Sequence record: OQ174501.1
Direction: 5' to 3' (one strand)
Length of the DNA stretch: 64,000 nt
DNA from: Escherichia phage REP2
Shown here: piece by piece, positions 708 to 50,444 of the stretch
Position numbering within the stretch: the stretch's first letter is position 1
Layout: each line of letters opens with the position of its first letter
Program-made: the position numbers and the translations under genes
Notes under the pieces: model-generated
What the model saw: only the letters and a program-made list of their open reading frames with translations
What the model was told of the DNA's origin: nothing
Databases searched by the model: none

Positions 708-1331
708 ATGAAAAAATATATAACTTATTTAACAATATATAGTGGAGATAAACTTCCTCCTTTTTATATTGGATCTACGTCTTTAGATAGGCATTTAGCT
801 GGATATCATGGTTCAGTTTTATCTAAAAAGTATAAGAAAATTTATAATAAAGAGCTTTCAGATAATCCTCACTTATTTGATTCATGTATTTTAGCTGAAT
901 TTGATACGCGTGAAGAAGCTATTAAATGCGAGTTATATTATCAACGATTGCATGATGCAGTTAAAAATCCATTATTCTTTAATATGTCATATGCTGCTCC
1001 AAAAGGTTCATTTGGAAGAGATAATAAAGGACAAAATCATCCATTATATGGTTCTCATAATTGTAAAGGAAATATACATTCACATGATCCATTAACAGGA
1101 AAATCTGCCTTTTTGCCTTATATTCCAGAAGGTTATGTAAAAGGAAGGTCAAATAAATTTAAAGCTTCATCACATAATAAAGGTAAAAAATGGTATAATA
1201 ACGGAGTTAAGCAAATGTTATGTCATGAACCTCCTGGTCCTGAATGGACAAAAGGAAAAATTAAAGAACTGGTTTCAAAAGCAGCTAAATTAGGATGGAA
1301 AAGACACCATGAAAATACTAAACTTGGGTGA
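708..1331 (+). CDS. putative free-standing GIY-YIG family homing endonuclease-like protein (seg-like)
   Basis: 207 aa; N-terminal YITYLTIY...FYIGST (GIY/YIG-like), downstream conserved R, E and N positions, C-terminal NUMOD-like G-x-NHPLYG and KGKKWYNNG motifs. Confidence 0.45.
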   Translation: MKKYITYLTIYSGDKLPPFYIGSTSLDRHLAGYHGSVLSKKYKKIYNKELSDNPHLFDSCILAEFDTREEAIKCELYYQRLHDAVKNPLFFNMSYAAPKGSFGRDNKGQNHPLYGSHNCKGNIHSHDPLTGKSAFLPYIPEGYVKGRSNKFKASSHNKGKKWYNNGVKQMLCHEPPGPEWTKGKIKELVSKAAKLGWKRHHENTKLG

Positions 1332-2775: not shown

Positions 2776-4460
2776 AGAATTTTAAACTAAACCGAGTTAG
2801 GTATCAAAATATAATGTCAGTAGGTGGAAATCCTATTGACATTCAATTAGATAAGGTTCAAAAAACTCTTATTACTGGACGAAATGGCGGTGGTAAGTCT
2901 ACTATGTTAGAAGCCATCACATTTGGGCTTTTTGGCAAGCCATTTCGTGATGTAAAGAAAGGTCAATTAATAAACAGCACAAATAAGAAAGAACTTTTAG
3001 TTGAACTGTGGATGGAATATGATGAGAAAAAGTACTATATCAAAAGAGGACAAAAACCAAACGTTTTCGAAATCACCGTTAACGGTACACGTCTTAATGA
3101 ATCTGCCAGCAGTAAAGATTTCCAAGCAGAATTTGAACAGCTTATCGGAATGTCATATGCCAGTTTCAAGCAGATTGTTGTCCTTGGTACAGCAGGGTAT
3201 ACCCCTTTCATGGGTTTGTCGACCCCTGCGCGAAGAAAGCTTGTGGAAGACCTGCTTGAGGTAGGAACATTAGCTGAAATGGATAAGCTTAATAAAGCAC
3301 TAATACGTGAATTAAATTCGCAGAACCAAGTGCTTGATGTTAAAAAAGATAGTATTATCCAACAAATTAAAATATATAATGATAACGTTGAACGCCAGAA
3401 AAAATTAACGGGTGACAACCTTACACGTCTACAAAATATGTATGATGATTTGGCAAAAGAAGCTAGAACGCTAAAATCGGAAATAGAAGAAGCTAACGAA
3501 AGATTAGTTAATATTGTTTTGGATGAAGACCCGACTGATGCATTTAATAAAATCGGTCAAGAAGCAGTTTTAATTAAATCAAAAATTGACTCGTATAATA
3601 AAGTCATTAATATGTATCACGAAGGTGGATTATGTCCAACCTGTTTGTCACAATTAAGTTCCGGTGATAAAGTTGTTTCTAAAATTAAAGATAAAGTTTC
3701 TGAATGTACGCATTCGTTTGAACAGCTTTCAACACACCGTGATAATTTAAAAGTTCTTGTTGATGAATACCGAGATAATATTAAAACTCAGCAGTCGTTG
3801 GCAAATGATATTCGCAATAAAAAGCAATCTCTAATCACGACGGTAGATAAAGCTAAAAAAGTTAAAGCAGCTATAGAAAAAGCATCTTCTGAGTTTATTG
3901 ACCATGCTGATGAAATAGCACTGCTTCAAGAAGAACTTGATAAAATTGTTAAGACAAAAACTAATTTAGTAATGGAAAAATACCACCGAGGAATTTTGAC
4001 TGATATGCTCAAAGATTCTGGTATTAAAGGTGCTATTATTAAAAAGTACATTCCATTATTTAATAAGCAGATTAACCATTATCTTAAAATAATGGAAGCG
4101 GATTATGTGTTTACATTAGATGAAGAATTTAATGAGACAATTAAATCCCGTGGTCGTGAAGATTTTAGTTATGCTTCATTCAGTCAAGGTGAAAAAGCAC
4201 GAATTGATATTGCTCTTTTATTTACTTGGCGTGATATTGCTGAAAAAGTTTCAGGTGTTAAAATAAGTTGTTTATTTCTTGATGAAGTGTATGACGGTGC
4301 ATTTGATGCTGAAGGCATTAAAAATGTAGCTAAAATTTTAGATGGTTTGAAGGATACCAACTTCTTCATAATTTCGCATAAAGACCATGATCCGCAGGAT
4401 TATGGACAGCATATTAAAATGGAAAAAGTTGGTAGATTTAGTGTTGCCACTATTAATTAA
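2772..4460 (+). CDS. 46: recombination endonuclease subunit gp46 (Rad50/SbcC-like ATPase)
   Basis: 562 aa; Walker A GRNGGGKST, long central coiled-coil, zinc-hook-like CPTC, C-terminal LFLDEV signature region; apparent GTG start. Confidence 0.9.
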   Translation: MKNFKLNRVRYQNIMSVGGNPIDIQLDKVQKTLITGRNGGGKSTMLEAITFGLFGKPFRDVKKGQLINSTNKKELLVELWMEYDEKKYYIKRGQKPNVFEITVNGTRLNESASSKDFQAEFEQLIGMSYASFKQIVVLGTAGYTPFMGLSTPARRKLVEDLLEVGTLAEMDKLNKALIRELNSQNQVLDVKKDSIIQQIKIYNDNVERQKKLTGDNLTRLQNMYDDLAKEARTLKSEIEEANERLVNIVLDEDPTDAFNKIGQEAVLIKSKIDSYNKVINMYHEGGLCPTCLSQLSSGDKVVSKIKDKVSECTHSFEQLSTHRDNLKVLVDEYRDNIKTQQSLANDIRNKKQSLITTVDKAKKVKAAIEKASSEFIDHADEIALLQEELDKIVKTKTNLVMEKYHRGILTDMLKDSGIKGAIIKKYIPLFNKQINHYLKIMEADYVFTLDEEFNETIKSRGREDFSYASFSQGEKARIDIALLFTWRDIAEKVSGVKISCLFLDEVYDGAFDAEGIKNVAKILDGLKDTNFFIISHKDHDPQDYGQHIKMEKVGRFSVATIN

Positions 4461-5170
4461 TGTTTGTGCTTACAGTTATCATTATGCCACCTTGATAAAT
4501 TTCCGAAAGTGGTAACTTTACCGCAATGGACGCAAGTACCAGTCTTTTCAGTTTTCTTGCGTCCATTTGGATTTTTCTTGCAGAAATTTCTATGCGCTGC
4601 GATAACGCATTTCTTGCCTATCATTCCGCAGAATTCGCAGGATGTTTCTTCAAGAACGATTGCTTTAAGCCCGTTTGAGATATTATTTCTGTGTTCTTTA
4701 GACATTGGTGGTCTAACTTTAGGATTAGGGTGATTTGGGCAGTTATCAAAATGCCAACGATTCATATTCCCGCTTAATCCAGACTTACCGCAATGAGGAC
4801 AAGTTAGTCTTGCTTTATTAGCTACTGCATCAGACATTTTCTTTCGTGTCTCTTGGGAGAATTCTTTGTTCTTTTCTATTTCCCAGAGTTTACGACGAAT
4901 CCAACCGAAAGTTTTATTGTTGCGTTTAGCGTATTTCGTAGAAACTGTCATCATGTTAGCAGCATAGACTAATTTTGGTTCAGAAGGATAAATTTTTACT
5001 AAAAGTTGATGAGCTACATAGTGCTCTTCTGGTGTTAAATCTACTAAGTTTGAAGCATCATCACTTCCATTTAAACAGCGCGGTATAATGTGATGAGATT
5101 CAGTATAACAATCAAGTTTTCGAGATTTAGCATTAGAGATTAACTTTTCATAAATTAGTTTATAATTCAT
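4457..5170 (-). CDS. free-standing HNH family homing endonuclease with three C-terminal CxxC zinc-finger repeats
   Basis: 237 aa on the opposite strand to all neighbours; HNH motif SHHIIPRCLNGSDDASNLVDLTPEEHYVAH; repeats CPHCG..RWHFDNC; SD AAGGAT upstream of the ATG. Confidence 0.7.
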   Translation of the reverse strand: MNYKLIYEKLISNAKSRKLDCYTESHHIIPRCLNGSDDASNLVDLTPEEHYVAHQLLVKIYPSEPKLVYAANMMTVSTKYAKRNNKTFGWIRRKLWEIEKNKEFSQETRKKMSDAVANKARLTCPHCGKSGLSGNMNRWHFDNCPNHPNPKVRPPMSKEHRNNISNGLKAIVLEETSCEFCGMIGKKCVIAAHRNFCKKNPNGRKKTEKTGTCVHCGKVTTFGNLSRWHNDNCKHKH

Positions 5171-8578: not shown

Positions 8579-11275
8579 ATGAAAGAATTTTATATCTCTA
8601 TCGAAACAGTCGGAAATAACATTGTTGAACGTTATATTGATGAAAATGGAAAGGAACGTACTCGCGAAGTAGAATATCTTCCAACTATGTTTAGACATTG
8701 TAAGGAAGAGTCAAAGTACAAAGACATCTATGGTAAAAATTGCGCTCCTCAAAAATTTCCATCAATGAAAGATGCTCGAGATTGGATGAAGCGAATGGAA
8801 GACATCGGTCTCGAAGCTCTCGGTATGAACGATTTTAAACTCGCTTATATCAGTGATACGTATGGTTCAGAAATTGTTTATGACCGAAAATTTGTTCGTG
8901 TAGCTAACTGTGACATTGAGGTTACTGGTGATAAATTTCCTGACCCAATGAAAGCTGAATATGAAATTGATGCTATCACTCATTACGATTCAATTGATGA
9001 TCGTTTTTATGTTTTCGACCTTTTGAATTCAATGTACGGTTCAGTATCAAAATGGGATGCAAAGTTAGCTGCTAAGCTTGACTGTGAAGGTGGTGATGAA
9101 GTTCCTCAAGAAATTCTTGACCGAGTAATTTATATGCCATTTGATAATGAGCGTGATATGCTCATGGAATATATTAATCTCTGGGAACAGAAACGACCTG
9201 CTATTTTTACCGGTTGGAATATTGAGGGATTTGACGTTCCGTATATCATGAATCGTGTTAAAATGGTTCTCGGTGAACGTAGTATGAAACGCTTCTCTCC
9301 AATCGGTCGAGTAAAATCTAAACTAATTCAAAATATGTATGGTAGCAAAGAAATTTATTCTATTGATGGCGTATCTATTCTTGATTATTTAGATTTGTAC
9401 AAGAAATTCGCTTTTACTAATTTGCCGTCATTCTCTTTGGAATCAGTTGCTCAACATGAAACCAAAAAAGGTAAATTACCGTATGATGGTCCTATTAATA
9501 AACTTCGTGAGACTAATCATCAACGATACATTAGTTATAACATCATTGACGTAGAATCAGTTCAAGCAATTGATAAAATTCGCGGGTTTATCGATCTAGT
9601 TTTAAGTATGTCTTATTATGCTAAAATGCCTTTTTCCGGTGTAATGAGTCCTATTAAAACCTGGGATGCCATTATTTTTAACTCATTGAAAGGTGAACAT
9701 AAGGTTATTCCTCAACAAGGTTCGCATGTTAAACAGAGTTTTCCGGGTGCATTTGTGTTTGAACCTAAACCAATTGCTCGTCGATATATTATGAGTTTTG
9801 ACTTGACGTCTCTGTATCCGAGCATTATTCGTCAGGTTAACATTAGTCCTGAGACTATTCGTGGTCAGTTTAAAGTTCATCCAATTCATGAATATATCGC
9901 AGGAACAGCTCCTAAACCAAGTGATGAATATTCTTGTTCTCCGAATGGATGGATGTATGATAAGCATCAAGAAGGTATCATTCCAAAGGAAATCGCTAAA
10001 GTATTTTTCCAGCGTAAAGATTGGAAAAAGAAAATGTTCGCTGAAGAAATGAATGCCGAAGCTATTAAAAAGATTATTATGAAAGGCGCAGGGTCTTGTT
10101 CAACTAAACCTGAAGTTGAACGATATGTTAAGTTCAGTGATGATTTCTTAAATGAATTATCGAATTACACTGAATCTGTTCTTAATAGTCTGATCGAAGA
10201 ATGTGAAAAAGCAGCTACACTTGCTAACACAAATCAGCTGAACCGTAAAATTCTTATTAACAGTCTTTATGGTGCTCTTGGTAATATTCATTTCCGTTAC
10301 TATGATTTGCGAAATGCTACTGCTATCACAATTTTCGGCCAAGTTGGTATTCAGTGGATTGCTCGTAAAATTAATGAATATCTGAATAAAGTATGCGGAA
10401 CTAATGGCGAAGATTTCATTGCAGCAGGTGATACTGATTCGGTATATGTTTGTGTAGATAAAGTTATTGAAAAAGTTGGTCTTGACCGATTCAAAGAGCA
10501 GAACGATTTAGTTGAATTCATGAATCAGTTCGGTAAGAAAAAGATGGAACCTATGATTGATGTTGCATATCGTGAGTTATGTGATTATATGAATAACCGC
10601 GAGCATCTGATGCATATGGACCGTGAAGCTATTTCTTGCCCTCCACTTGGTTCAAAGGGCGTTGGTGGATTTTGGAAAGCGAAAAAGCGTTATGCTCTGA
10701 ACGTTTATGATATGGAAGATAAGCGTTTTGCTGAACCACATCTAAAAATCATGGGTATGGAAACTCAGCAGAGTTCAACGCCTAAAGCGGTCCAAGAAGC
10801 TCTCGAAGAAAGTATTCGTCGTATTCTTCAGGAAGGTGAAGAGTCTGTCCAAGAATATTACAAGAACTTCGAGAAAGAATATCGTCAACTTGACTATAAA
10901 GTTATTGCTGAAGTAAAAACTGCGAACGATATAGCGAAATATGATGATAAAGGTTGGCCAGGATTTAAATGTCCGTTCCATATTCGTGGTGTGCTAACTT
11001 ATCGTCGAGCTGTTAGCGGTTTAGGTGTAGCTCCAATTTTGGATGGAAATAAAGTAATGGTTCTTCCATTGCGTGAAGGAAATCCATTTGGTGACAAATG
11101 CATTGCTTGGCCGTCGGGTACAGAACTTCCAAAAGAAATTCGTTCTGACGTACTGTCTTGGATTGACTACTCAACTTTGTTCCAAAAATCGTTTGTTAAA
11201 CCGCTTGCGGGTATGTGTGAATCGGCTGGCATGGACTATGAAGAAAAAGCTTCGTTAGACTTCCTGTTTGGCTGA
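8579..11275 (+). CDS. 43: DNA polymerase gp43 (family B, with 3'-5' exonuclease)
   Basis: 898 aa; exo motifs (FDIE-like, YNIIDVESV), polymerase motifs DLTSLYPS, KILINSLYG, GDTDS. Confidence 0.95.
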   Translation: MKEFYISIETVGNNIVERYIDENGKERTREVEYLPTMFRHCKEESKYKDIYGKNCAPQKFPSMKDARDWMKRMEDIGLEALGMNDFKLAYISDTYGSEIVYDRKFVRVANCDIEVTGDKFPDPMKAEYEIDAITHYDSIDDRFYVFDLLNSMYGSVSKWDAKLAAKLDCEGGDEVPQEILDRVIYMPFDNERDMLMEYINLWEQKRPAIFTGWNIEGFDVPYIMNRVKMVLGERSMKRFSPIGRVKSKLIQNMYGSKEIYSIDGVSILDYLDLYKKFAFTNLPSFSLESVAQHETKKGKLPYDGPINKLRETNHQRYISYNIIDVESVQAIDKIRGFIDLVLSMSYYAKMPFSGVMSPIKTWDAIIFNSLKGEHKVIPQQGSHVKQSFPGAFVFEPKPIARRYIMSFDLTSLYPSIIRQVNISPETIRGQFKVHPIHEYIAGTAPKPSDEYSCSPNGWMYDKHQEGIIPKEIAKVFFQRKDWKKKMFAEEMNAEAIKKIIMKGAGSCSTKPEVERYVKFSDDFLNELSNYTESVLNSLIEECEKAATLANTNQLNRKILINSLYGALGNIHFRYYDLRNATAITIFGQVGIQWIARKINEYLNKVCGTNGEDFIAAGDTDSVYVCVDKVIEKVGLDRFKEQNDLVEFMNQFGKKKMEPMIDVAYRELCDYMNNREHLMHMDREAISCPPLGSKGVGGFWKAKKRYALNVYDMEDKRFAEPHLKIMGMETQQSSTPKAVQEALEESIRRILQEGEESVQEYYKNFEKEYRQLDYKVIAEVKTANDIAKYDDKGWPGFKCPFHIRGVLTYRRAVSGLGVAPILDGNKVMVLPLREGNPFGDKCIAWPSGTELPKEIRSDVLSWIDYSTLFQKSFVKPLAGMCESAGMDYEEKASLDFLFG

Positions 11276-12495: not shown

Positions 12496-13236
12496 ATGAT
12501 TAGTGACTCTATGACAGTTGAAGAAATCCGTCTTCATTTGGGGCTTGCATTAAAAGAAAAAGATTTCGTAGTTGATAAAACTGGCGTTAAAACTATTGAA
12601 ATTATTGGCGCATCATTTATAGCAGATGAACCGTTTATTTTTGGCGCTCTTAATGATGAATACATTCAGCGTGAACTTGAATGGTATAAATCTAAGAGCT
12701 TGTTCGTTAAAGATATTCCGGGTGAAACACCGAAGATTTGGCAACAAGTAGCATCTTCTAAAGGTGAAATTAACTCGAATTATGGCTGGGCTATCTGGTC
12801 AGAAGATAACTATGCCCAGTATGATATGTGTTTAGCTGAACTTGGTCAAAATCCTGATTCTCGACGTGGTATCATGATTTATACTCGTCCATCCATGCAA
12901 TTTGACTACAATAAAGATGGTATGTCAGATTTCATGTGTACTAATACAGTACAGTACCTGATTCGTGATAAGAAAGTCAATGCGGTTGTTAGCATGAGAA
13001 GCAATGATTGCTGGGCAGGCTATCGTAATGATTATGCTTGGCAAAAATACGTACTAGATAAATTAGTATCTGATTTGAATGCAGGCGACCCATCGCGGCA
13101 ATATAAAGCAGGTTCTATTATATGGAACGTTGGAAGTCTTCATGTGTACGAAAATCAGTTTTATTTAGTTGACCATTGGTGGAACACCGGTGAGACTCAT
13201 ATTGCTAAAAAGGATTATACTGGAAAATGGAAGTAA
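12496..13236 (+). CDS. 42: dCMP hydroxymethylase gp42
   Basis: 246 aa; thymidylate-synthase-like fold signatures; T4 synteny and size. Confidence 0.9.
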   Translation: MISDSMTVEEIRLHLGLALKEKDFVVDKTGVKTIEIIGASFIADEPFIFGALNDEYIQRELEWYKSKSLFVKDIPGETPKIWQQVASSKGEINSNYGWAIWSEDNYAQYDMCLAELGQNPDSRRGIMIYTRPSMQFDYNKDGMSDFMCTNTVQYLIRDKKVNAVVSMRSNDCWAGYRNDYAWQKYVLDKLVSDLNAGDPSRQYKAGSIIWNVGSLHVYENQFYLVDHWWNTGETHIAKKDYTGKWK

Positions 13237-13867
13237 ATGTGCCACATGTTTATAAGTATAAACATCCTAAAACTAAAAAGTGGTATATAGGAAGTCATGA
13301 TGGTCACAACCCGAATTATGATGGTTCGGGTGTAGTTTGGCAACATGCTAAAAAGAAATATGGAATAAAATCCTTTAATAAAGAAATATTATATGAAGGA
13401 CCAATGTTTAGACAGGTTGAAGAAATTATTTTAACTTGTTTAGATGCTGCTAATTGTCCGGATTCATATAATTTAAAGAATGAAGCATGGGGAGGAAGTT
13501 TTCCAGGCAAATTAAATGGAATGTACGGTAAAAACTATCTCCAGAAGAAAGATATAAGTGCGGAAATGCCTTTCGTGGAATCAAGCGTCCTGATCATTCT
13601 AAAAGAATGAAAGGCGAAGGTAATCCAATGTATGGTAAAAATGAGCAGGCATATGGAATTATAAATCGAGCCAAGGAAAATTCTGGTAAAACTTATGAAG
13701 AAATTTTTGGCGTAGAAAAAGCTAAAATAATTAAAGAAACGATGTCTAAAAATCGTAAAGGAAAACCTCATAATTTGATAGAAAAAATATGTCCGCATTG
13801 CGGACTAAAAGGACGTGGGCCAAATATGACAAGATACCATTTTGACAAATGTAAGGCACTTAAATGA
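13227..13867 (+). pseudogene. GIY-YIG homing endonuclease (seg-like) interrupted by a frameshift (frame 0 13227-13610, frame +2 13532-13867)
   Basis: N-terminal VYKYKHPKTKKWYIGS GIY-YIG motif; NUMOD-like GMYGKN / GNPMYGKN repeats continue across a frame change at the A5 run 13530-13534; C-terminal CPHCG..RYHFDKC zinc finger. Confidence 0.6.
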
Positions 13868-14706
13868 TTCAATTCGTAATTCCAAGTTATCAGCGTGTAG
13901 GGGCAGTTTCTGCCCTTAATATGTTTCCGACTGATTATGAACCCCATATTGTAGTGCGTGAACACGAAGAAAAAGCTTATTATGATGCTTATGGGTCTAG
14001 AGCTAAAATTATAACTATTCCTGATGATGTAAACGGAATTGCCGGTACTCGTAAAGCAATTACTGATATGTATGCAGGCCAACGAATCTGGATGATTGAC
14101 GATGATACTACTATTCGTATGAGTTCAATGCGAAAAAGAGATGACCGTCGTTGCGTGGATAAAGTCAATCAATTGACTCATGAACAGTTCTATGAATTGA
14201 TTCAATACGTCGAAGATGCCATGGATTGCGGGTATTATCACGGTCATGCTCGCCTACCAATTTTTAAAATTACTTCATCTTGGGGTAATTATCGTGAAAA
14301 TTCATATGGATTCACGAATACATGGTATGACCTTGGAAAACTTACGACAGAACAAATTGGGTATGGAAAAATTGATTTGTGCGAAGATATGTATGCATTT
14401 CTTAATTTAATTAATCAAGGTTATCCGCATTTGGCCTTGTTCAAATATCTGGTTGTATCTGGAAAAGCGCAAGCTCCTGGTGGGTGTAGTTCAATTCGTA
14501 GTAATTCTAAACATAATAGAGCGCTTGAGCAAATCAATAGAGAGTTTCCAGAGCAAGCTCGTTGGAAAACTTCTAATATCGAAAAACGAAAATCGTTGGG
14601 TGAAGAAGACGAGCCATTAAAGGTTCTTCGCATGTGTGTTTCGCGTAAAGAAAAATCAGAAGCATTTCATAAGTTTAATGCTATTCATCCAATAGCAGTT
14701 GATTAA
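13864..14706 (+). CDS. putative GT-A fold (GT2-like) glycosyltransferase, candidate DNA hydroxymethylcytosine sugar transferase
   Basis: 280 aa; N-terminal FVIPSYQR, acidic IITIPDD and DXD-type WMIDDDT motifs; occupies the slot between gene 42 and uvsX where T4 has beta-gt. Confidence 0.55.
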   Translation: MIQFVIPSYQRVGAVSALNMFPTDYEPHIVVREHEEKAYYDAYGSRAKIITIPDDVNGIAGTRKAITDMYAGQRIWMIDDDTTIRMSSMRKRDDRRCVDKVNQLTHEQFYELIQYVEDAMDCGYYHGHARLPIFKITSSWGNYRENSYGFTNTWYDLGKLTTEQIGYGKIDLCEDMYAFLNLINQGYPHLALFKYLVVSGKAQAPGGCSSIRSNSKHNRALEQINREFPEQARWKTSNIEKRKSLGEEDEPLKVLRMCVSRKEKSEAFHKFNAIHPIAVD

Positions 14707-14783
14707 TGCCTAAATTTATTGTGTTATAATTACTCTATCTTTAACCAGTGAGGAAAATATAATGATGCCTATGGAAAAAATGA

Positions 14784-19398: not shown

Positions 19399-20427
19399 AT
19401 GTCATCAATACCTTGGATTGATAATGAGTTTGCATACCGTGCATTAGCTCATTTACCTAAATTCACACAAGTAAATAATAGTTCAACTTTTAAATTGCGG
19501 TTTAGATGCCCTGTTTGTGGAGATTCAAAAACCGACCAAAATAAAGCTCGTGGATGGTATTATGGTGATAATAATGAAGGAAATATTCATTGTTATAACT
19601 GTAACTATCATGCACCAATCGGAATATATTTAAAGGAGTTTGAACCCGATTTATATCGTGAGTATATCTTTGAAATAAGAAAAGAAAAAGGTAAAAGTCG
19701 TCCAGTAGAAAAACCTAAAGAACTTCCTAAACAACCTGAGAAGAAAATAATTAAATCTCTTCCGTCATGTGTTAGATTAGATAAACTGGCGGAAGACCAT
19801 CCAATTATAAAATACGTAAAAGCTCGTTGTATTCCAAAGGATAAATGGAAATATCTTTGGTTTACAACCGAATGGCCTAAATTAGTTAATAGCATAGCAC
19901 CAGGAACATACAAAAAGGAAATTTCTGAGCCTCGTCTTGTTATTCCAATTTATAATGCTAATGGAAAAGCTGAGTCTTTTCAAGGGCGTGCATTAAAGAA
20001 AGATGCTCCTCAAAAATATATCACCATTAAAGCTTATCCTGAGGCAACAAAAATATATGGAGTCGAACGAGTTAAAGATGGTGATGTATATGTTCTAGAA
20101 GGACCTATAGATTCACTTTTTATTGAAAATGGTATAGCTATTACGGGTGGTCAATTAGACCTAGAAGTTGTTCCATTTAAAGATAGACGAGTGTGGGTTT
20201 TAGATAATGAACCTCGTCACCCTGACACTATCAAGCGAATGACTAAATTAGTTGATGCAGGAGAAAGGGTTATGTTTTGGGATAAATCTCCCTGGAAATC
20301 AAAAGATGTCAATGATATGATTAGAAAGGAAGGTGCAACCCCTGAACAAATTATGGAATATATGAAAAATAATATTGCCCAGGGGTTGATGGCTAAAATG
20401 CGGCTATCTAAATATGCTAAGATTTAA
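19399..20427 (+). CDS. 61: DNA primase gp61
   Basis: 342 aa; zinc ribbon CPVCGDS...HCYNCNYH followed by a Toprim-like core. Confidence 0.9.
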   Translation: MSSIPWIDNEFAYRALAHLPKFTQVNNSSTFKLRFRCPVCGDSKTDQNKARGWYYGDNNEGNIHCYNCNYHAPIGIYLKEFEPDLYREYIFEIRKEKGKSRPVEKPKELPKQPEKKIIKSLPSCVRLDKLAEDHPIIKYVKARCIPKDKWKYLWFTTEWPKLVNSIAPGTYKKEISEPRLVIPIYNANGKAESFQGRALKKDAPQKYITIKAYPEATKIYGVERVKDGDVYVLEGPIDSLFIENGIAITGGQLDLEVVPFKDRRVWVLDNEPRHPDTIKRMTKLVDAGERVMFWDKSPWKSKDVNDMIRKEGATPEQIMEYMKNNIAQGLMAKMRLSKYAKI

Positions 20428-20624: not shown

Positions 20625-20695
20625 ATGTCCTCCTTATTGCTTTATATATTTATTGTATAATTAATCTACTAACCCATGAATTGAAAGGAAAAATA

Positions 20696-21214
20696 ATGGC
20701 TTACTTTAACGAATGTAGTCAACTGATTGAAGGCGCTGATAAAGCTCAAAATGAATATTGGGATATTCTCGGTGATGAAAAAGACCCGCTACAGGTTATG
20801 CTTGATATGCAGAAATCTTTACAGATTCGTTTAGCTAAAGATAAACCTGAATATAATCGTCATCCTGATGATTTGGCTACTGCCGGTGAAGTTGTTGATT
20901 GGTTGCGTAATCAGAAAGATTATATTGATGATGAATTCCGTGAACTTCTGACTTCTCTTGGTGGTATGAGTAATGGTGAAAAAGACGCATCTGCTGTATG
21001 GAAACCTTGGAAGTCGCAGCATGGTGAACGTCGTGAAACTCTGATTACTGATTTGTCTCCGCAAGACCAACTGGAAATTAAGTTTGAAATGATTGATATT
21101 CTCCATTTCGTTCTGAACATGTTCCAAGGTCTTGGTCTTACAGCAGAAGAAATCTTTAAACTTTATTACCTGAAAAATGCTGAAAATTTCGCACGTCAAG
21201 ACCGAGGTTATTAA
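20696..21214 (+). CDS. 56: dCTP pyrophosphatase gp56 (MazG-like)
   Basis: 172 aa from the ATG at 20696; MazG-like EExxE-type helices; T4 synteny. Confidence 0.8.
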   Translation: MAYFNECSQLIEGADKAQNEYWDILGDEKDPLQVMLDMQKSLQIRLAKDKPEYNRHPDDLATAGEVVDWLRNQKDYIDDEFRELLTSLGGMSNGEKDASAVWKPWKSQHGERRETLITDLSPQDQLEIKFEMIDILHFVLNMFQGLGLTAEEIFKLYYLKNAENFARQDRGY

Positions 21215-21244
21215 CAGCTCGTCTTAAAAGCCGCGAGAATTTAT

Positions 21245-46021: not shown

Positions 46022-46804
46022 TTATACTCTTGGACCATATATTGCTCCAACATTTTGCCATGTTGGAGCGGACCCTATGACAGCATAACCAGCAGCACCG
46101 CCATCATATTCAGATCCTTGACCGCGAATATTGCATCTACCTCCCGCGGAACCTACTTCACCACCGTTTCCGCCATTATAGATACCATTCACGGATCCTG
46201 AGCCAGGTGCAGAAATAGTACCACCAGTCGCGCCTGATTGCATATCAATAGATCCGCCTGGCGCACCAAAAGGACGACCGCCACCGCCGCCAAAGGTCAA
46301 TCTCATTTGTGAAAAAGGAGAATAATATCCGCCGCCACCGCCACCGCCGCCGCCTGCAATAGCTCCGCCATTATTAATTCTTAGTCTCCCACCAATATCG
46401 TTTTGAATACAATGACCCCCAGCTGAGCCAGGACTATTGCTACCACCATTACCTCCACGACCATACATCGTTACGCCATGTATATTTAACTGAACATATT
46501 CATTTGGTGTATCTCCGTACATGAAGAATAAAGGAACATCTTTAGAATATGATACTAAATCACCTGTAATATTAAACACTATAGGTGCACTACCGGCCTC
46601 AAAACATCTATCTCGGAACCATTGACCATTGAAGTTATGGTCTGCTCCAAGTGTATGAATAATTTCTCGTGAGCGACCTGCAAATTGACTCATCCAGCAA
46701 GGAACACCCAATCTTAATTGACCAGCCGCTTGACTCATCCATCGTTGCCCTGTTTCATTTGCGGCTGAACTTCCAATCCAACCAGGAACACCAACTACTG
46801 CCAT
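46022..46804 (-). CDS. 38: gp38 long-tail-fibre tip adhesin, T2/T6 type with glycine-rich motifs
   Basis: 260 aa; poly-Gly runs (GGGGGGGGG, GGGGG) separating variable segments; downstream of gene 37. Confidence 0.8.
46085..46459 (-). repeat. glycine-rich motif region of gp38 (GGN-type low-complexity coding repeats)
   Basis: runs such as ccgccaccgccaccgccgccgcc on the plus strand encode poly-Gly. Confidence 0.6.
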
Positions 46805-46839
46805 AATTTATCTCCAAAGGGGGCGTTGCCCCCTTGTTG

Positions 46840-49785
46840 TTAGAATTTAAAATATTTACTAATTTTGCGAGCAATTTTAGTAAAGAAAGGAGTTTTCAAT
46901 TCTTTAATTTCTTCACTCATTTCCTGAATAGCCTTAATTAAAAGAGCATTCACAGCAGAGTTAGAAATTGTCAGAACATCAGATCCATCAACTTCAACTT
47001 TAGATACAGCTTCCGGTAATTCCTTTTCAAGGTCCTGAGCAATAATACCAACTTCACGTTTAATAACGCTACGGTCTTTAATAGACTTAACTTTATCGTA
47101 AATATAAACTTTCAGTCGGCATACTTTTTCGACTGCTCCATATTCTAATTCTTCTTTATTAATCTTGAGACGGGAGTCAGAACGAATATACACATCGCTA
47201 AAGCTACCATTTCCTGGTGTATAAAAGAATCCATCATGATGGAATTCAAACACAGCTTGTGGGTGTCCAGCATCAGGAGAAGCCTCCGTGGATCCGACAC
47301 GAATGATTGCTTGCCCCCACTGTGATGGAATACGACGCATACCAAAGTCAACAGCGGTGCTATATCCTTGATTGGTTATAACGCTTCTTGCTTTAAGAAT
47401 AGGATAATAACAATCCTGTGAAACATAACCATGATCAACGAATAATGGAGCTTCTACTCGCCATTGGTTGCCCCAATCACCCGGTTGTCTAGCAATCCAT
47501 CCAGAACCGTTAATGTGTACACGGTCGCGGTTAACGTTAACCATTGCGGTATTTTGCGGGTTTAACGCAATCTCACCATTGTTTGTGATATGTACTGCCG
47601 CCTGAGAAGCATAGCTATAAAATGCTAGCGAATTATCAGCACCACCCTTGCCAATATACCAGTTACCAGTCCCGTCTATGTCACCGCGAATATGCAAAGA
47701 ATTACTAGCAGTTGTTGATAATACAATAGAATCATTAGGTGCATTGATTGTTAACCGACCTGTCATCGTATCACCGCCTTTACCTACGCGAGTATTCAAG
47801 GCAGCATCTAAATTTGTCGCATTGTTATATTTCTTCCAGATTGAACCGGCAATATTACCATCTGTATTAAGGAACGCATCACCGACATATACACGTCCTG
47901 GAGATTTAAAATAACCTGACGGCATGAAAGTCCATTGTTTTAACCCATCTGCTGTTCCATTAGCGGATAAATCACCCTGAGCAATGATCTTATATTCGGA
48001 TGTACCTATAGCCATACCAGTGGCAAAGGTGATATTACTTACAGTATTTTTCTGTTTAACAATTGGCGCAAACTGGTTTTTATTTGAATCGTCAATAGCC
48101 TGATATAATGGCGCAATGGTAGTATTCTGATTTGCGTAAGTATTAGAACCAGAACCGCTAGCAGGGGCTTGAATATATGCTCCTGGAGCAAGTGAAATTT
48201 TCTGATTAGCACCAAGATTAACAGCAGCAGTGATATTCAGCAATCCCCTAAAGTTTTGTTGAGCAGTCCAAGTATGTGATCCGTCTTCAAGAACAACACG
48301 GCGACAAGTATTAGTCCTACTTCCTGGATTACCAGCGATACGAACAACGAAATAACGGTAGTTTGTCTGGGATACAGTACCGCGCCAAACCTGAACAGTA
48401 CGCCCTGTGCCAGTGTGTTCGCTAGGACCAACGGAAAACATAACCAAGTTTCCGTCAATCGTCCCCCAATCCATATTTGCTGGCATGTTCTTTATTTTGT
48501 TCAAAGGAACGCTAAACATACTACCAGGAACAAAATCAAAGGTTTGCCAATCTAACTCCGCTAATTGAGCTTTAATACCACCCATACCCAAAGTAATTGG
48601 CAGAGAGTAAGATGTATATACTTCGTTCCATGCACCCCACGCACCACCAGTATATGCACGCTCAAAAATACGTCCGCGAGTAGTTGCGCCTGTTCCGGCA
48701 GTAGTAAATTTTTGGAAAATAGCACCACCAGAAGCACGCTGTTTAACTTCCAGCAAACCAACAATAACAGGCGGCAAACCTTCACCTGTAGGGCAGTTAA
48801 TAACGGCATCGGTGCCTAAAATATTATATAACCCAGGAGTTTTAAAATCATTAAGGTCACCATCATAGAAAGTCGCTGGTGTGCCATGACCAACCTGCTT
48901 CCATTCCTCCCACTTAGGTGCACTAGCATCCCATGCAGCAGCGAGACAACGAGTATAAACCATACCCATGCGGGTAGTATAACGCTGAGTTCTCGTGTAT
49001 AAACCACCTTCAAATATTTCTAAAAATCCTTGTGCGGCTGATCCTTCTTCTGGATAATGGCGATCAAATGATGCGATTGCGCTTGAACTGTTTCGCCATA
49101 AGCCACAATGTTCTAATTCTCCCAAGCTATCAAGGTCAATCGTTTGTGAAAGTGGACGAGTTGACGCTTGAACATTACGCCACACACCCCATGGACCATC
49201 GACGCCATTCCATTTAGCAGATAAGGAACGAATATAGACGTTACCAGATCTTACAGTATAACGCTGAGTGCCAGCAAATTGGCCGGCCACAAACACTTCT
49301 AGTACACCTACGGCATTTTCTTCTGGGAATTTATTTGCTGGTTGCGCATTTGTTGAAGTAGATTTCGACCAAACACCAAGATATTCTTCAATGGGCCCAT
49401 ACGTATCTAAATTAGCATCAGTAGGTAATTCGCCATTATTTTTTATAAATGTTGTGCTATTGACATTTATGTCAGATGGAGTTAAGGTAATGTCTTTTGA
49501 CCCATCAAAAGATATACCATTAATTTTCCTAGGTGTTTGCAATTTAGTAGCTGTGCTAGAATTTCCAATTAAAGTTCCAGTTATATTTTCTGTAACCTCT
49601 AAAGACCCATTTATAGTTCCTCCATATTTTAAACCTAATTCTATAACACTACCTGAGTCATCTTTTGTGAAAATTGTTTTATCTTTTAAGTTTATAGCCA
49701 ATTCACCTTCGGCTAATACTGAAGCAGCAGGACGTTGACCTGCAGTTTTGCTTCTTTTAAATTGTATTTGTTTTAAAGTAGCCAT
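46840..49785 (-). CDS. 37: long tail fibre distal subunit gp37
   Basis: 981 aa fibrous protein between genes 36 and 38. Confidence 0.85.
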
Positions 49786-49793
49786 AAGTCCTC

Positions 49794-50444
49794 TTAATAA
49801 TAGCCGAAATCTTGAACAGAATCCTTAATTACGATTTGGTCAAATCGTGGAACGTGTGAAGGTTGAGATGCAGGATTCTGTGAAAAAAGGTTTGGCGCAG
49901 TTAAATTTCCTGTCATAGTGTCTCCAGAGCGTAATACCCTAGAGTTTGCATTTGTTGTAACAGTATTTATTGCTCCATCAACATAATCTTTACGAGTAAC
50001 ATCAGATGCTGCGGAAGGAGTAGATGTAACAGTTACAGATGGAGCCGTTACAGCCCTGGTAAATGTTGTCAAACCTTCTGGTGTAATAGTAATTTGTCCA
50101 GTAGTGATTTCACTACCTGCAGGTCTAAAACTAATACCGCCGGAAGAGCCACCAACTACAAGAGTATTACCGGTACCGCCACCAGAACGAATTCGAATGG
50201 GGGTTTCATTATTACTTAATTGAAGATAACTATTTACCCCGTAATTAATAGTAATTGGACCGGTGTAAGTACCACCATTAGCTTTAGAAACGAAATCGTT
50301 ATCAGCTGCCTGCGGTTTATTATATTCTGAATATATTTTAAATGATTTGTAGAGTACATCGTCACCGGCTGAATTCAATGGAAAATTTCCTTGATGCCAA
50401 ATGACAGATCCACCTACAGTTGAACCTACTTTTAAATCAGCCAT
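49794..50444 (-). CDS. 36: long tail fibre subunit gp36
   Basis: 216 aa; position between genes 35 and 37. Confidence 0.8.

Follow-up and report, generated by a model that had tools for sequence, protein, structure and literature searches.

Organization of the locus

In the 64-kb stretch of phage DNA analyzed here (the window), two open reading frames (ORFs) on the plus strand are situated between two host genes for DNA modification in a T4-like coliphage. The upstream neighbor is gene 42 (positions 12496 to 13236, plus strand), which encodes dCMP hydroxymethylase and is annotated in phages REP3, VEc20, and AV120. The downstream neighbor (13864 to 14706, plus strand; Pfam TAGT) encodes beta-glucosyl-HMC-alpha-glucosyltransferase. 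The first intervening ORF (13227 to 13610) codes for 127 amino acids and ends with TGA, and its start is overlapped by the last 10 nucleotides of gene 42. The second (13607 to 13867), which forms the tail of the endonuclease gene described below, codes for 86 amino acids in frame +2 relative to the first (13607 - 13227 = 380), and its stop codon overlaps the ATG of the glucosyltransferase gene (ATGA).

A GIY-YIG catalytic domain occupies approximately residues 6 to 95 of the 127-aa ORF (nucleotides 13242 to 13511, plus strand) and is followed by the start of a linker. The last 24 residues of this ORF are out of frame, beginning with residue 103, the N of GKN. The frame changes at a run of five A nucleotides (A5; 13530 to 13534, plus strand), which is the site of a 1-bp deletion: intact alleles carry six (A6) and phage PYps5T carries seven (A7). 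Directly 3' of a TAA at 13529 to 13531, frame +2 is open from position 13532, where its translation begins KLSPEERYKCGNAFRGIKRPDHSKRMKGEGNPMYGKN..., and it continues to 13867 on the plus strand as the orphaned C-terminal DNA-binding part (residues ~103 to 213 of the intact protein). This open tail frame extends 75 nucleotides upstream of its first ATG (13607), as far as the A run, and that ATG corresponds to Met128 of the intact protein. The motif NGMYGKN is found in frame 0 and GNPMYGKN in the tail. The gene has a single further A6 run (13782 to 13787, plus strand), which is intact in the window and is A7 in phage Shinka. An earlier note on this DNA, made from the letters alone, had reported an ORF pair with a frame change at the aaaaa run, and its coordinates, the +2 frame, and the presence of both motifs proved accurate.

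As read from the sequence, the stop codon of the 127-aa ORF and the ATG of the 86-aa ORF overlap as ATGA (13607 to 13610, plus strand). Reinitiation at this site is conceivable, but the overlap is probably a coincidence, and expression of the second ORF is putative.

We also observed a 9-bp G+C-rich hairpin (TAGGGGCAGTTTCTGCCCTTA; 13898 to 13918, plus strand) located 30 nucleotides inside the glucosyltransferase ORF. The endonuclease-free phages T6 and EO1 retain it, and the annotation of Yersinia phage fPS-2 labels it a "terminator."

The two ORFs are parts of a single gene in related phages

Over 25 kb, the window matches Escherichia phage REP3 (OQ174502.1) with 100% identity. REP3 is a T2/T6-like Tequatrovirus that has beta-glucosyl-HMC-alpha-glucosyltransferase. 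In the REP3 annotation, the two pieces are listed as a "homing endonuclease" (127 aa) and a "hypothetical protein" (86 aa). The gene of phage VEc20 differs from that of the window solely by one additional A (A6), and it forms a continuous 642-nucleotide ORF for a protein of 213 aa. When an 86-nucleotide probe spanning the A-run site was compared with GenBank phage records, 71 matches were found, two of which (REP3 and Tequatrovirus BCH953P2) match the probe perfectly and carry A5. The other 69 share 95 to 99% identity with the probe, and each of the 58 that were listed has one extra base. Every extra-base copy inspected has an A6 run (AAGAAA in one case) and a continuous 213-aa ORF.

At the protein level, PHROG 314 ("homing endonuclease") gives a single match to the fused protein that spans residues 1 to 211 (E 2.3e-31), and its match to the 127-aa ORF spans residues 1 to 100 (E 3.9e-20). 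A database search with the fused protein recovered 64 relatives, most of which are 208 to 230 aa long and align with 95 to 99% coverage and 45 to 71% identity. Furthermore, 31 aligned homologs (30 to 70% identity) run continuously through the junction, where the segment NGM[YF]GKKL..E..YKCG.AFRGKKRPDHS is conserved and uninterrupted. Because the PHROG 314 match is unbroken, the A6 allele of VEc20 is one ORF, and the 31 homologs are continuous, we regard the two parts as one gene. These sequence comparisons show that the 127-aa and 86-aa ORFs are its halves and that the window carries a derived 1-bp deletion. The same results bear out the proposal in the earlier note that a single endonuclease gene has been split in two: alignment to intact relatives, a check it had suggested, revealed single ORFs across the junction rather than two unrelated genes.

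Predicted domains and fold of the intact protein

Pfam searches of the window's own ORFs, for which the GIY-YIG profiles PF01541 and PF19835 were considered, yielded no GIY-YIG match at E<=1. NUMOD3 was found in the protein at E 0.0027, with a sub-threshold score of 18 bits against a cut-off of 20.4 bits; this match is the NUMOD3-like motif HSKRMKGEGNPMYG (13598 to 13639, plus strand; intact residues 125 to 138). Among 31 family members, Pfam recognizes NUMOD3 in 20 (best 4.5e-10), SegE_GIY-YIG in 11 (best 4.7e-08), and GIY-YIG in 6 (best 7.1e-08). Since Pfam misses GIY-YIG in the protein itself, the domain labels used here are based on the family members and the predicted fold.

A search of PDB sequences with a family profile aligned the GIY and YIG motifs in register with those of I-TevI (1LN0), at a marginal E value of 0.03. 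Matches to TatB and a kinase in this search were dismissed as noise. The motifs VYKY (residues 8 to 11) and WYIG (residues 19 to 22) align with IYQI and VYVG of I-TevI, and their spacing fits the approximately 10 to 11 residues typical of GIY-YIG. Y20 and G22 never vary across the 31 homologs, and Y9 varies hardly at all. Likewise, N82 is nearly invariant within a SYNLKN motif, and a Glu (E64/E65) is present in the expected helix (compare N90 and E75 of I-TevI). At the position of R27, a catalytic residue of I-TevI, the profile alignment shows a gap or loop in this family and no counterpart.

An AlphaFold2 model of the intact protein has a mean pLDDT of 85.9, with values of 91 to 97 over most of residues 11 to 80. 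The top three Foldseek matches to this model are chains of the I-TevI catalytic domain (probability 1.00; TM 0.63 to 0.66 on target; rmsd approximately 3 A), the best of which is 1MK0 (TM 0.66, rmsd 2.9 A). At the other end of the protein is a C-terminal C2HC zinc-finger-like module (CPHC...H...C; 13790 to 13852, plus strand), whose residues C189, C192, H205, and C209 are invariant among the 31 homologs. This module is modeled as a beta-hairpin plus a helix and weakly matches the UBZ finger of RAD18. Among T4 proteins, SegC comes closest to the endonuclease, with 35% identity over residues 7 to 138.

From its sequence and modeled fold, the intact protein is predicted to be a free-standing Seg-type GIY-YIG homing endonuclease. 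Our literature searches found no test of nuclease activity, target site, or mobility for this endonuclease family. The label "Seg-like GIY-YIG" given in the earlier note is right in kind. SegC is the nearest T4 protein, but the gene is not one of T4 segA-G and occupies another locus. One refinement applies to the note's domain assignments: the GIY-YIG domain is supported through homologs and fold and the zinc finger is conserved, whereas in the protein itself the Pfam GIY-YIG match is absent and NUMOD3 falls below threshold.

Two other ORFs in the window resemble nuclease genes. A 237-aa HNH-type ORF (4457 to 5170, minus strand) lies on the opposite strand adjoining the 3' end of the gene 46 homolog. 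The zinc-finger motif C-x2-C-G...GN[ML][NS]RWH[FN]DNC occurs twice in this ORF. The finger at the C-terminus of the GIY-YIG gene product (CPHCG...GPNMTRYHFDKC) is a clear relative of this motif, and one DNA-binding module appears, from these motifs, to be common to both nuclease families. The second is a 207-aa ORF with a GIY-YIG-like N-terminus (MKKYITYLTIYSGDKLPPFYIGSTS...; 708 to 1331, plus strand) that overlaps the start of the gene 47 homolog at position 1309. Because the region from 715 to 1308 has no counterpart in AV120, this ORF looks like another sporadic free-standing endonuclease gene.

Insertion site and distribution of the endonuclease gene

A 1.5-kb probe matched 502 phage records, 77 of which carry the endonuclease gene. 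In noncarriers such as T6, RB18, RB32, and EO1, the corresponding span is shorter by 631 nucleotides. At the empty site of T6 and EO1, the stop codon of gene 42 overlaps the ATG of the glucosyltransferase gene (AAATGATT). The endonuclease ORF of carriers begins within gene 42, 10 nucleotides before its end, and finishes with the same AAATGATT. The insertion is precise, because carriers and the empty-site phages share this sequence at the glucosyltransferase ATG. Flank identity is 97 to 99% for carriers and approximately 91 to 93% for noncarriers.

Comparison with endonuclease-free EO1 revealed that gene 42 ends in a hyperdivergent patch adjoining the insertion (13187 to 13236, plus strand). 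There are 14 mismatches in these last 50 nucleotides of gene 42, compared to 0 to 1 per 50 nucleotides over the 400 nucleotides upstream and 1 to 4 per 50 nucleotides on the glucosyltransferase side. Where Seg and Mob endonucleases have their targets, sharply bounded recoded patches are known to adjoin the insertions. Because the sharply bounded recoding here also adjoins the insertion, we infer that the patch is a candidate recognition or cleavage region of endonuclease-free phages that has been recoded in carriers. In T4, uvsX and beta-gt flank segA, and 5.1 and 5.3 flank segC (PMC2988022). The gene in the window is an unnamed member of the Seg kind at the gene 42/beta-alpha-glucosyltransferase locus, which is distinct from the T4 seg loci.

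Sequences related to the gene were noticed in Klebsiella phages. The genome of vB_KpnM_GF (MK421971.1, positions 10283 to 10372) retains 30 residues of the endonuclease C-terminus with 80% identity to residues 181 to 210, under a feature annotated as dCMP hydroxymethylase. In Roth77 (PQ657821.1, positions 19429 to 20045), the endonuclease ortholog matches in two pieces. Both sequences may represent additional steps in the decay of this locus among Klebsiella phages.

The A5 allele is found on 10 contigs and four haplotypes

The exact 127-aa product is present on 10 independent contigs from different projects, including REP3, its sibling REP2, BCH953P2, and a 167-kb contig from an E. coli isolate assembly (GCA_033877295.1). 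It is also present in Logan assemblies of three unrelated SRA runs. Gene content beside the A5 gene differs among contigs, and contig L087 has an extra SegA-like gene in the gap between the glucosyltransferase gene and uvsX. The A5 run occurs on four gene haplotypes, two of which equal a sampled A6 haplotype minus one A, and two of which have one further SNP relative to the closest sampled A6 haplotype. The haplotype of the window is the commonest intact allele minus one A, with no further decay. All four gametes are present for the A5 site paired with variable sites 217 nucleotides upstream and 142 nucleotides downstream. This pattern fits either of two histories, in which A5 may have arisen repeatedly or may have arisen once and been moved by recombination.

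Other frameshifts affect the same gene. Phage PYps5T has A7 at the same run, leading to products of 110 and 117 aa, and Shinka has A7 at the gene's other A6 run (13782 to 13787), which is a different frameshift. In our cluster table, the two main 213-aa variants are represented by 65 and 120 contigs and the 127-aa piece by 5; the frequency of the A5 allele is about 2 to 3%. A scan of IMG/VR produced one identical and a few full-length relatives (58 to 65%), and most other matches share the C-terminal zinc-finger motif alone, such that this resource was of little use for counting A5 versus A6. Literature searches on REP3, its accession, and BCH953P2 found nothing.

The earlier note had listed a homopolymer sequencing or assembly error among its explanations, in which case REP3 would truly have A6 and an intact gene. 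The difference is indeed a single base in a homopolymer, and the extra base is present in most GenBank records with this site (A5 in 2 of 71). However, an error of this type would have to account for the same truncated product on 10 contigs from differing sources, with four haplotypes and differing neighbor genes. Furthermore, when the 64-kb window was compared with AV120, no annotated gene other than the endonuclease gene proved to be split by a frameshift; homopolymer errors are therefore not widespread in the assembly, and runs of five or six bases should not be hard for short-read data. We therefore consider such an error very unlikely. From the recurrence of this sequence, the A5 allele is probably real.

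Two candidate frame changes relative to AV120, at approximately 46019 and 42172, were rejected because they affect stop-to-stop ORFs rather than annotated genes; one of these ORFs is antisense to the holin gene and the other is out of frame with an annotated CDS. Relative to AV120, two strongly diverged segments (20636 to 21228 and 46100 to 50270) are 68 to 80% identical or unaligned, in surroundings of 94 to 98% identity. The latter segment covers the distal tail-fiber/adhesin genes, and both are typical mosaic regions.

In some close relatives, contigs L087 (4485 to 5150) and L103 (4486 to 5151), a 221-aa SegA-like gene that Pfam assigns to GIY-YIG separates the glucosyltransferase gene from uvsX. 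This gene is absent from the window, where the corresponding intergenic region is 14707 to 14783. L087 also has A5.

Runs of six A nucleotides are classic frameshift hot spots in T4, as in the rII hot spots and the Streisinger slippage model. The AAAAAA sequence is kept in diverged homologs of the endonuclease, and one Tequatrovirus allele has AAGAAA. We rejected the idea that selection maintains a mutable A tract, given that AAA is the preferred Lys codon in these AT-rich genomes and that the AAGAAA allele exists.

It can also be proposed that the A6 tract is a reversible on/off switch (a contingency locus), whereby toggling among A5, A6, and A7 would silence a costly nuclease when endonuclease-free targets are lacking. 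If this were true, an undamaged gene would be kept and could revert at the hot spot, which would explain the presence of +/-1 lesions on four haplotypes without decay. We view a switch of this kind as very unlikely. In a variant of this reading, the defunct allele could be spread in trans by neighboring endonucleases, such as the SegA-like gene in L087.

Possible separate or recoded products of the split gene

The two ORFs might be expressed as separate polypeptides that have a function. For example, the 86-aa zinc-finger/NUMOD3 fragment could bind the target site and act in repression or protection, or the two fragments could assemble again. Consistent with this possibility, the stop codon of the first ORF overlaps the ATG of the second, both domains are undamaged, and the A5 allele persists in several lineages. 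However, neither the linker nor the first NUMOD3 repeat is included in the 86-aa ORF, its ATG is merely Met128, and a stop codon within approximately 25 codons is expected by chance in out-of-frame AT-rich sequence. No Shine-Dalgarno-like sequence is evident upstream of this ATG (aaaagaATG). Likewise, the A7 allele of PYps5T and the allele of Shinka break the gene differently, and thus no particular split is favored, and the frequency of the A5 allele is only about 2 to 3%. A functional split is therefore very unlikely in our estimation.

Full-length endonuclease could instead be restored from the A5 allele by programmed -1 ribosomal frameshifting or by transcriptional slippage at the A tract. 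Either a -1 shift or the gain of a single A in the mRNA would be required; A runs are suited to both kinds of slippage, and the frame downstream of the run is fully intact. Against this, the shift is not conserved, since A6 in-frame alleles are the rule and diverged homologs are single ORFs. The 0-frame sequence GGU AAA AAC does not form a canonical X XXY YYZ heptamer because U precedes AAA, and a UAA in the -1 frame at 13529 to 13531 leaves one possible slip position. RNA folding of the 90 nucleotides downstream gave a minimum free energy of -18.3 kcal/mol compared to a shuffle mean of -14.8 (z = -1.23), and 26 of 200 shuffles fold as well. A search of Rfam returned no match, and a promoter/terminator scan found promoter-like sites at numbers not above shuffle expectation. 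Runs of five A nucleotides cause very little polymerase slippage. Moreover, the A7 allele of PYps5T and the frameshift elsewhere in the gene in Shinka fit decay rather than recoding. Background slippage on A5 could produce traces of full-length protein, for which there is no known reason to matter. In the absence of a heptamer, significant downstream structure, and conservation of the shift, the slippery-site frameshift entertained in the earlier note is extremely unlikely.

Probable recent inactivation at a mutational hot spot

We find it likely that the locus holds a free-standing Seg-type endonuclease gene that has recently been inactivated by a real A6-to-A5 deletion at a recurrent hot spot. 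The intact 213-aa form would consist of an N-terminal GIY-YIG nuclease, a NUMOD3-containing linker, and, at the C-terminus, a DNA-binding zinc-finger module. If this enzyme behaves like SegA-G and I-TevI, it would cleave the endonuclease-free allele in a co-infecting relative, close to the junction of gene 42 and the glucosyltransferase gene, and the endonuclease gene would then be copied in by recombinational repair. Replication slippage from A6 to A5 would part the nuclease domain from the DNA-binding domain and create a very recent loss-of-function allele. With the A6 run acting as a mutational hot spot, the lesion may recur or pass by recombination among related phages.

The A6 allele encodes the nuclease and DNA-binding domains in one polypeptide of 213 aa, and the copy in the window does not, which makes it a pseudogene of the Seg-like homing endonuclease family. 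The 127-aa product would keep the nuclease fold and lose the linker repeats and zinc finger. The isolated catalytic domain of I-TevI has negligible specific activity. Of the possibilities put forward in the earlier note, a recently inactivated endonuclease agrees best with the data, in that the gene is identical to the commonest intact allele but for the missing A and displays no further decay. For phages, the life cycle of homing endonucleases has been discussed as including a phase of degeneration (PMC2988022), and a loss-of-function interpretation fits both this phase and the frameshifts reported for ICP1 phages (PMC10448857).

For annotation purposes, the two CDSs of REP3 are best combined into a single entry marked as a frameshifted pseudogene. 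Beyond annotation, the inactivation itself has little importance, and events of this kind are familiar; the one feature that stands out somewhat is that +/-1 changes recur at a single A6 tract on several haplotypes. The locus is a clean natural example of endonuclease decay by homopolymer slippage, in which one run occurs as A5, A6, or A7 and the other also as A7, and such decay is relevant to the cycling of selfish genes in phage populations. The intact gene is an uncharacterized Seg-like endonuclease at a locus outside T4 segA-G, with a 50-nucleotide candidate target patch.

Comparison with known systems

Like T4 SegA-SegG, the endonuclease is encoded by a free-standing gene that is located between conserved phage genes and is sporadic in close relatives. 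It also resembles the T4 Seg proteins in combining an N-terminal GIY-YIG domain with a C-terminal DNA-binding region, and in having a divergent flank at the insertion. In contrast, no similarity was detected between T4 SegC and the C-terminal half of the endonuclease, the locus is that of gene 42 and the beta-alpha-glucosyltransferase gene, the copy in the window is frameshifted, and cleavage and homing are predicted activities.

The predicted N-terminal domain superposes on the catalytic domain of I-TevI, which is encoded by the T4 td intron, and the two proteins share a modular nuclease/linker/DNA-binding layout, a zinc finger, and NUMOD3-type linker elements. Unlike I-TevI, the endonuclease is not intron encoded, and sequence identity is 19 to 20%. 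The R27-bearing helix of I-TevI is a short loop here, and the zinc finger is at the extreme C-terminus, whereas that of I-TevI is in the linker.

In ICP1 phages, frameshifts in homing endonuclease genes are frequent, are described as a characteristic mark of such genes, and include the gp115/gp116 split between the nuclease and DNA-binding domains of an HNH-AP2 protein (PMC10448857). As with gp115/gp116, the frameshift in the window leaves the nuclease and DNA-binding domains in adjacent ORFs. The endonuclease genes of ICP1 and T4 I-TevIII also vary in presence and integrity among near-identical isolates (PMC10448857; PMC2790892), and the gene examined here behaves similarly. These systems involve other nuclease families and phages, whereas the changes here are +/-1 events in one A6 run on several haplotypes.
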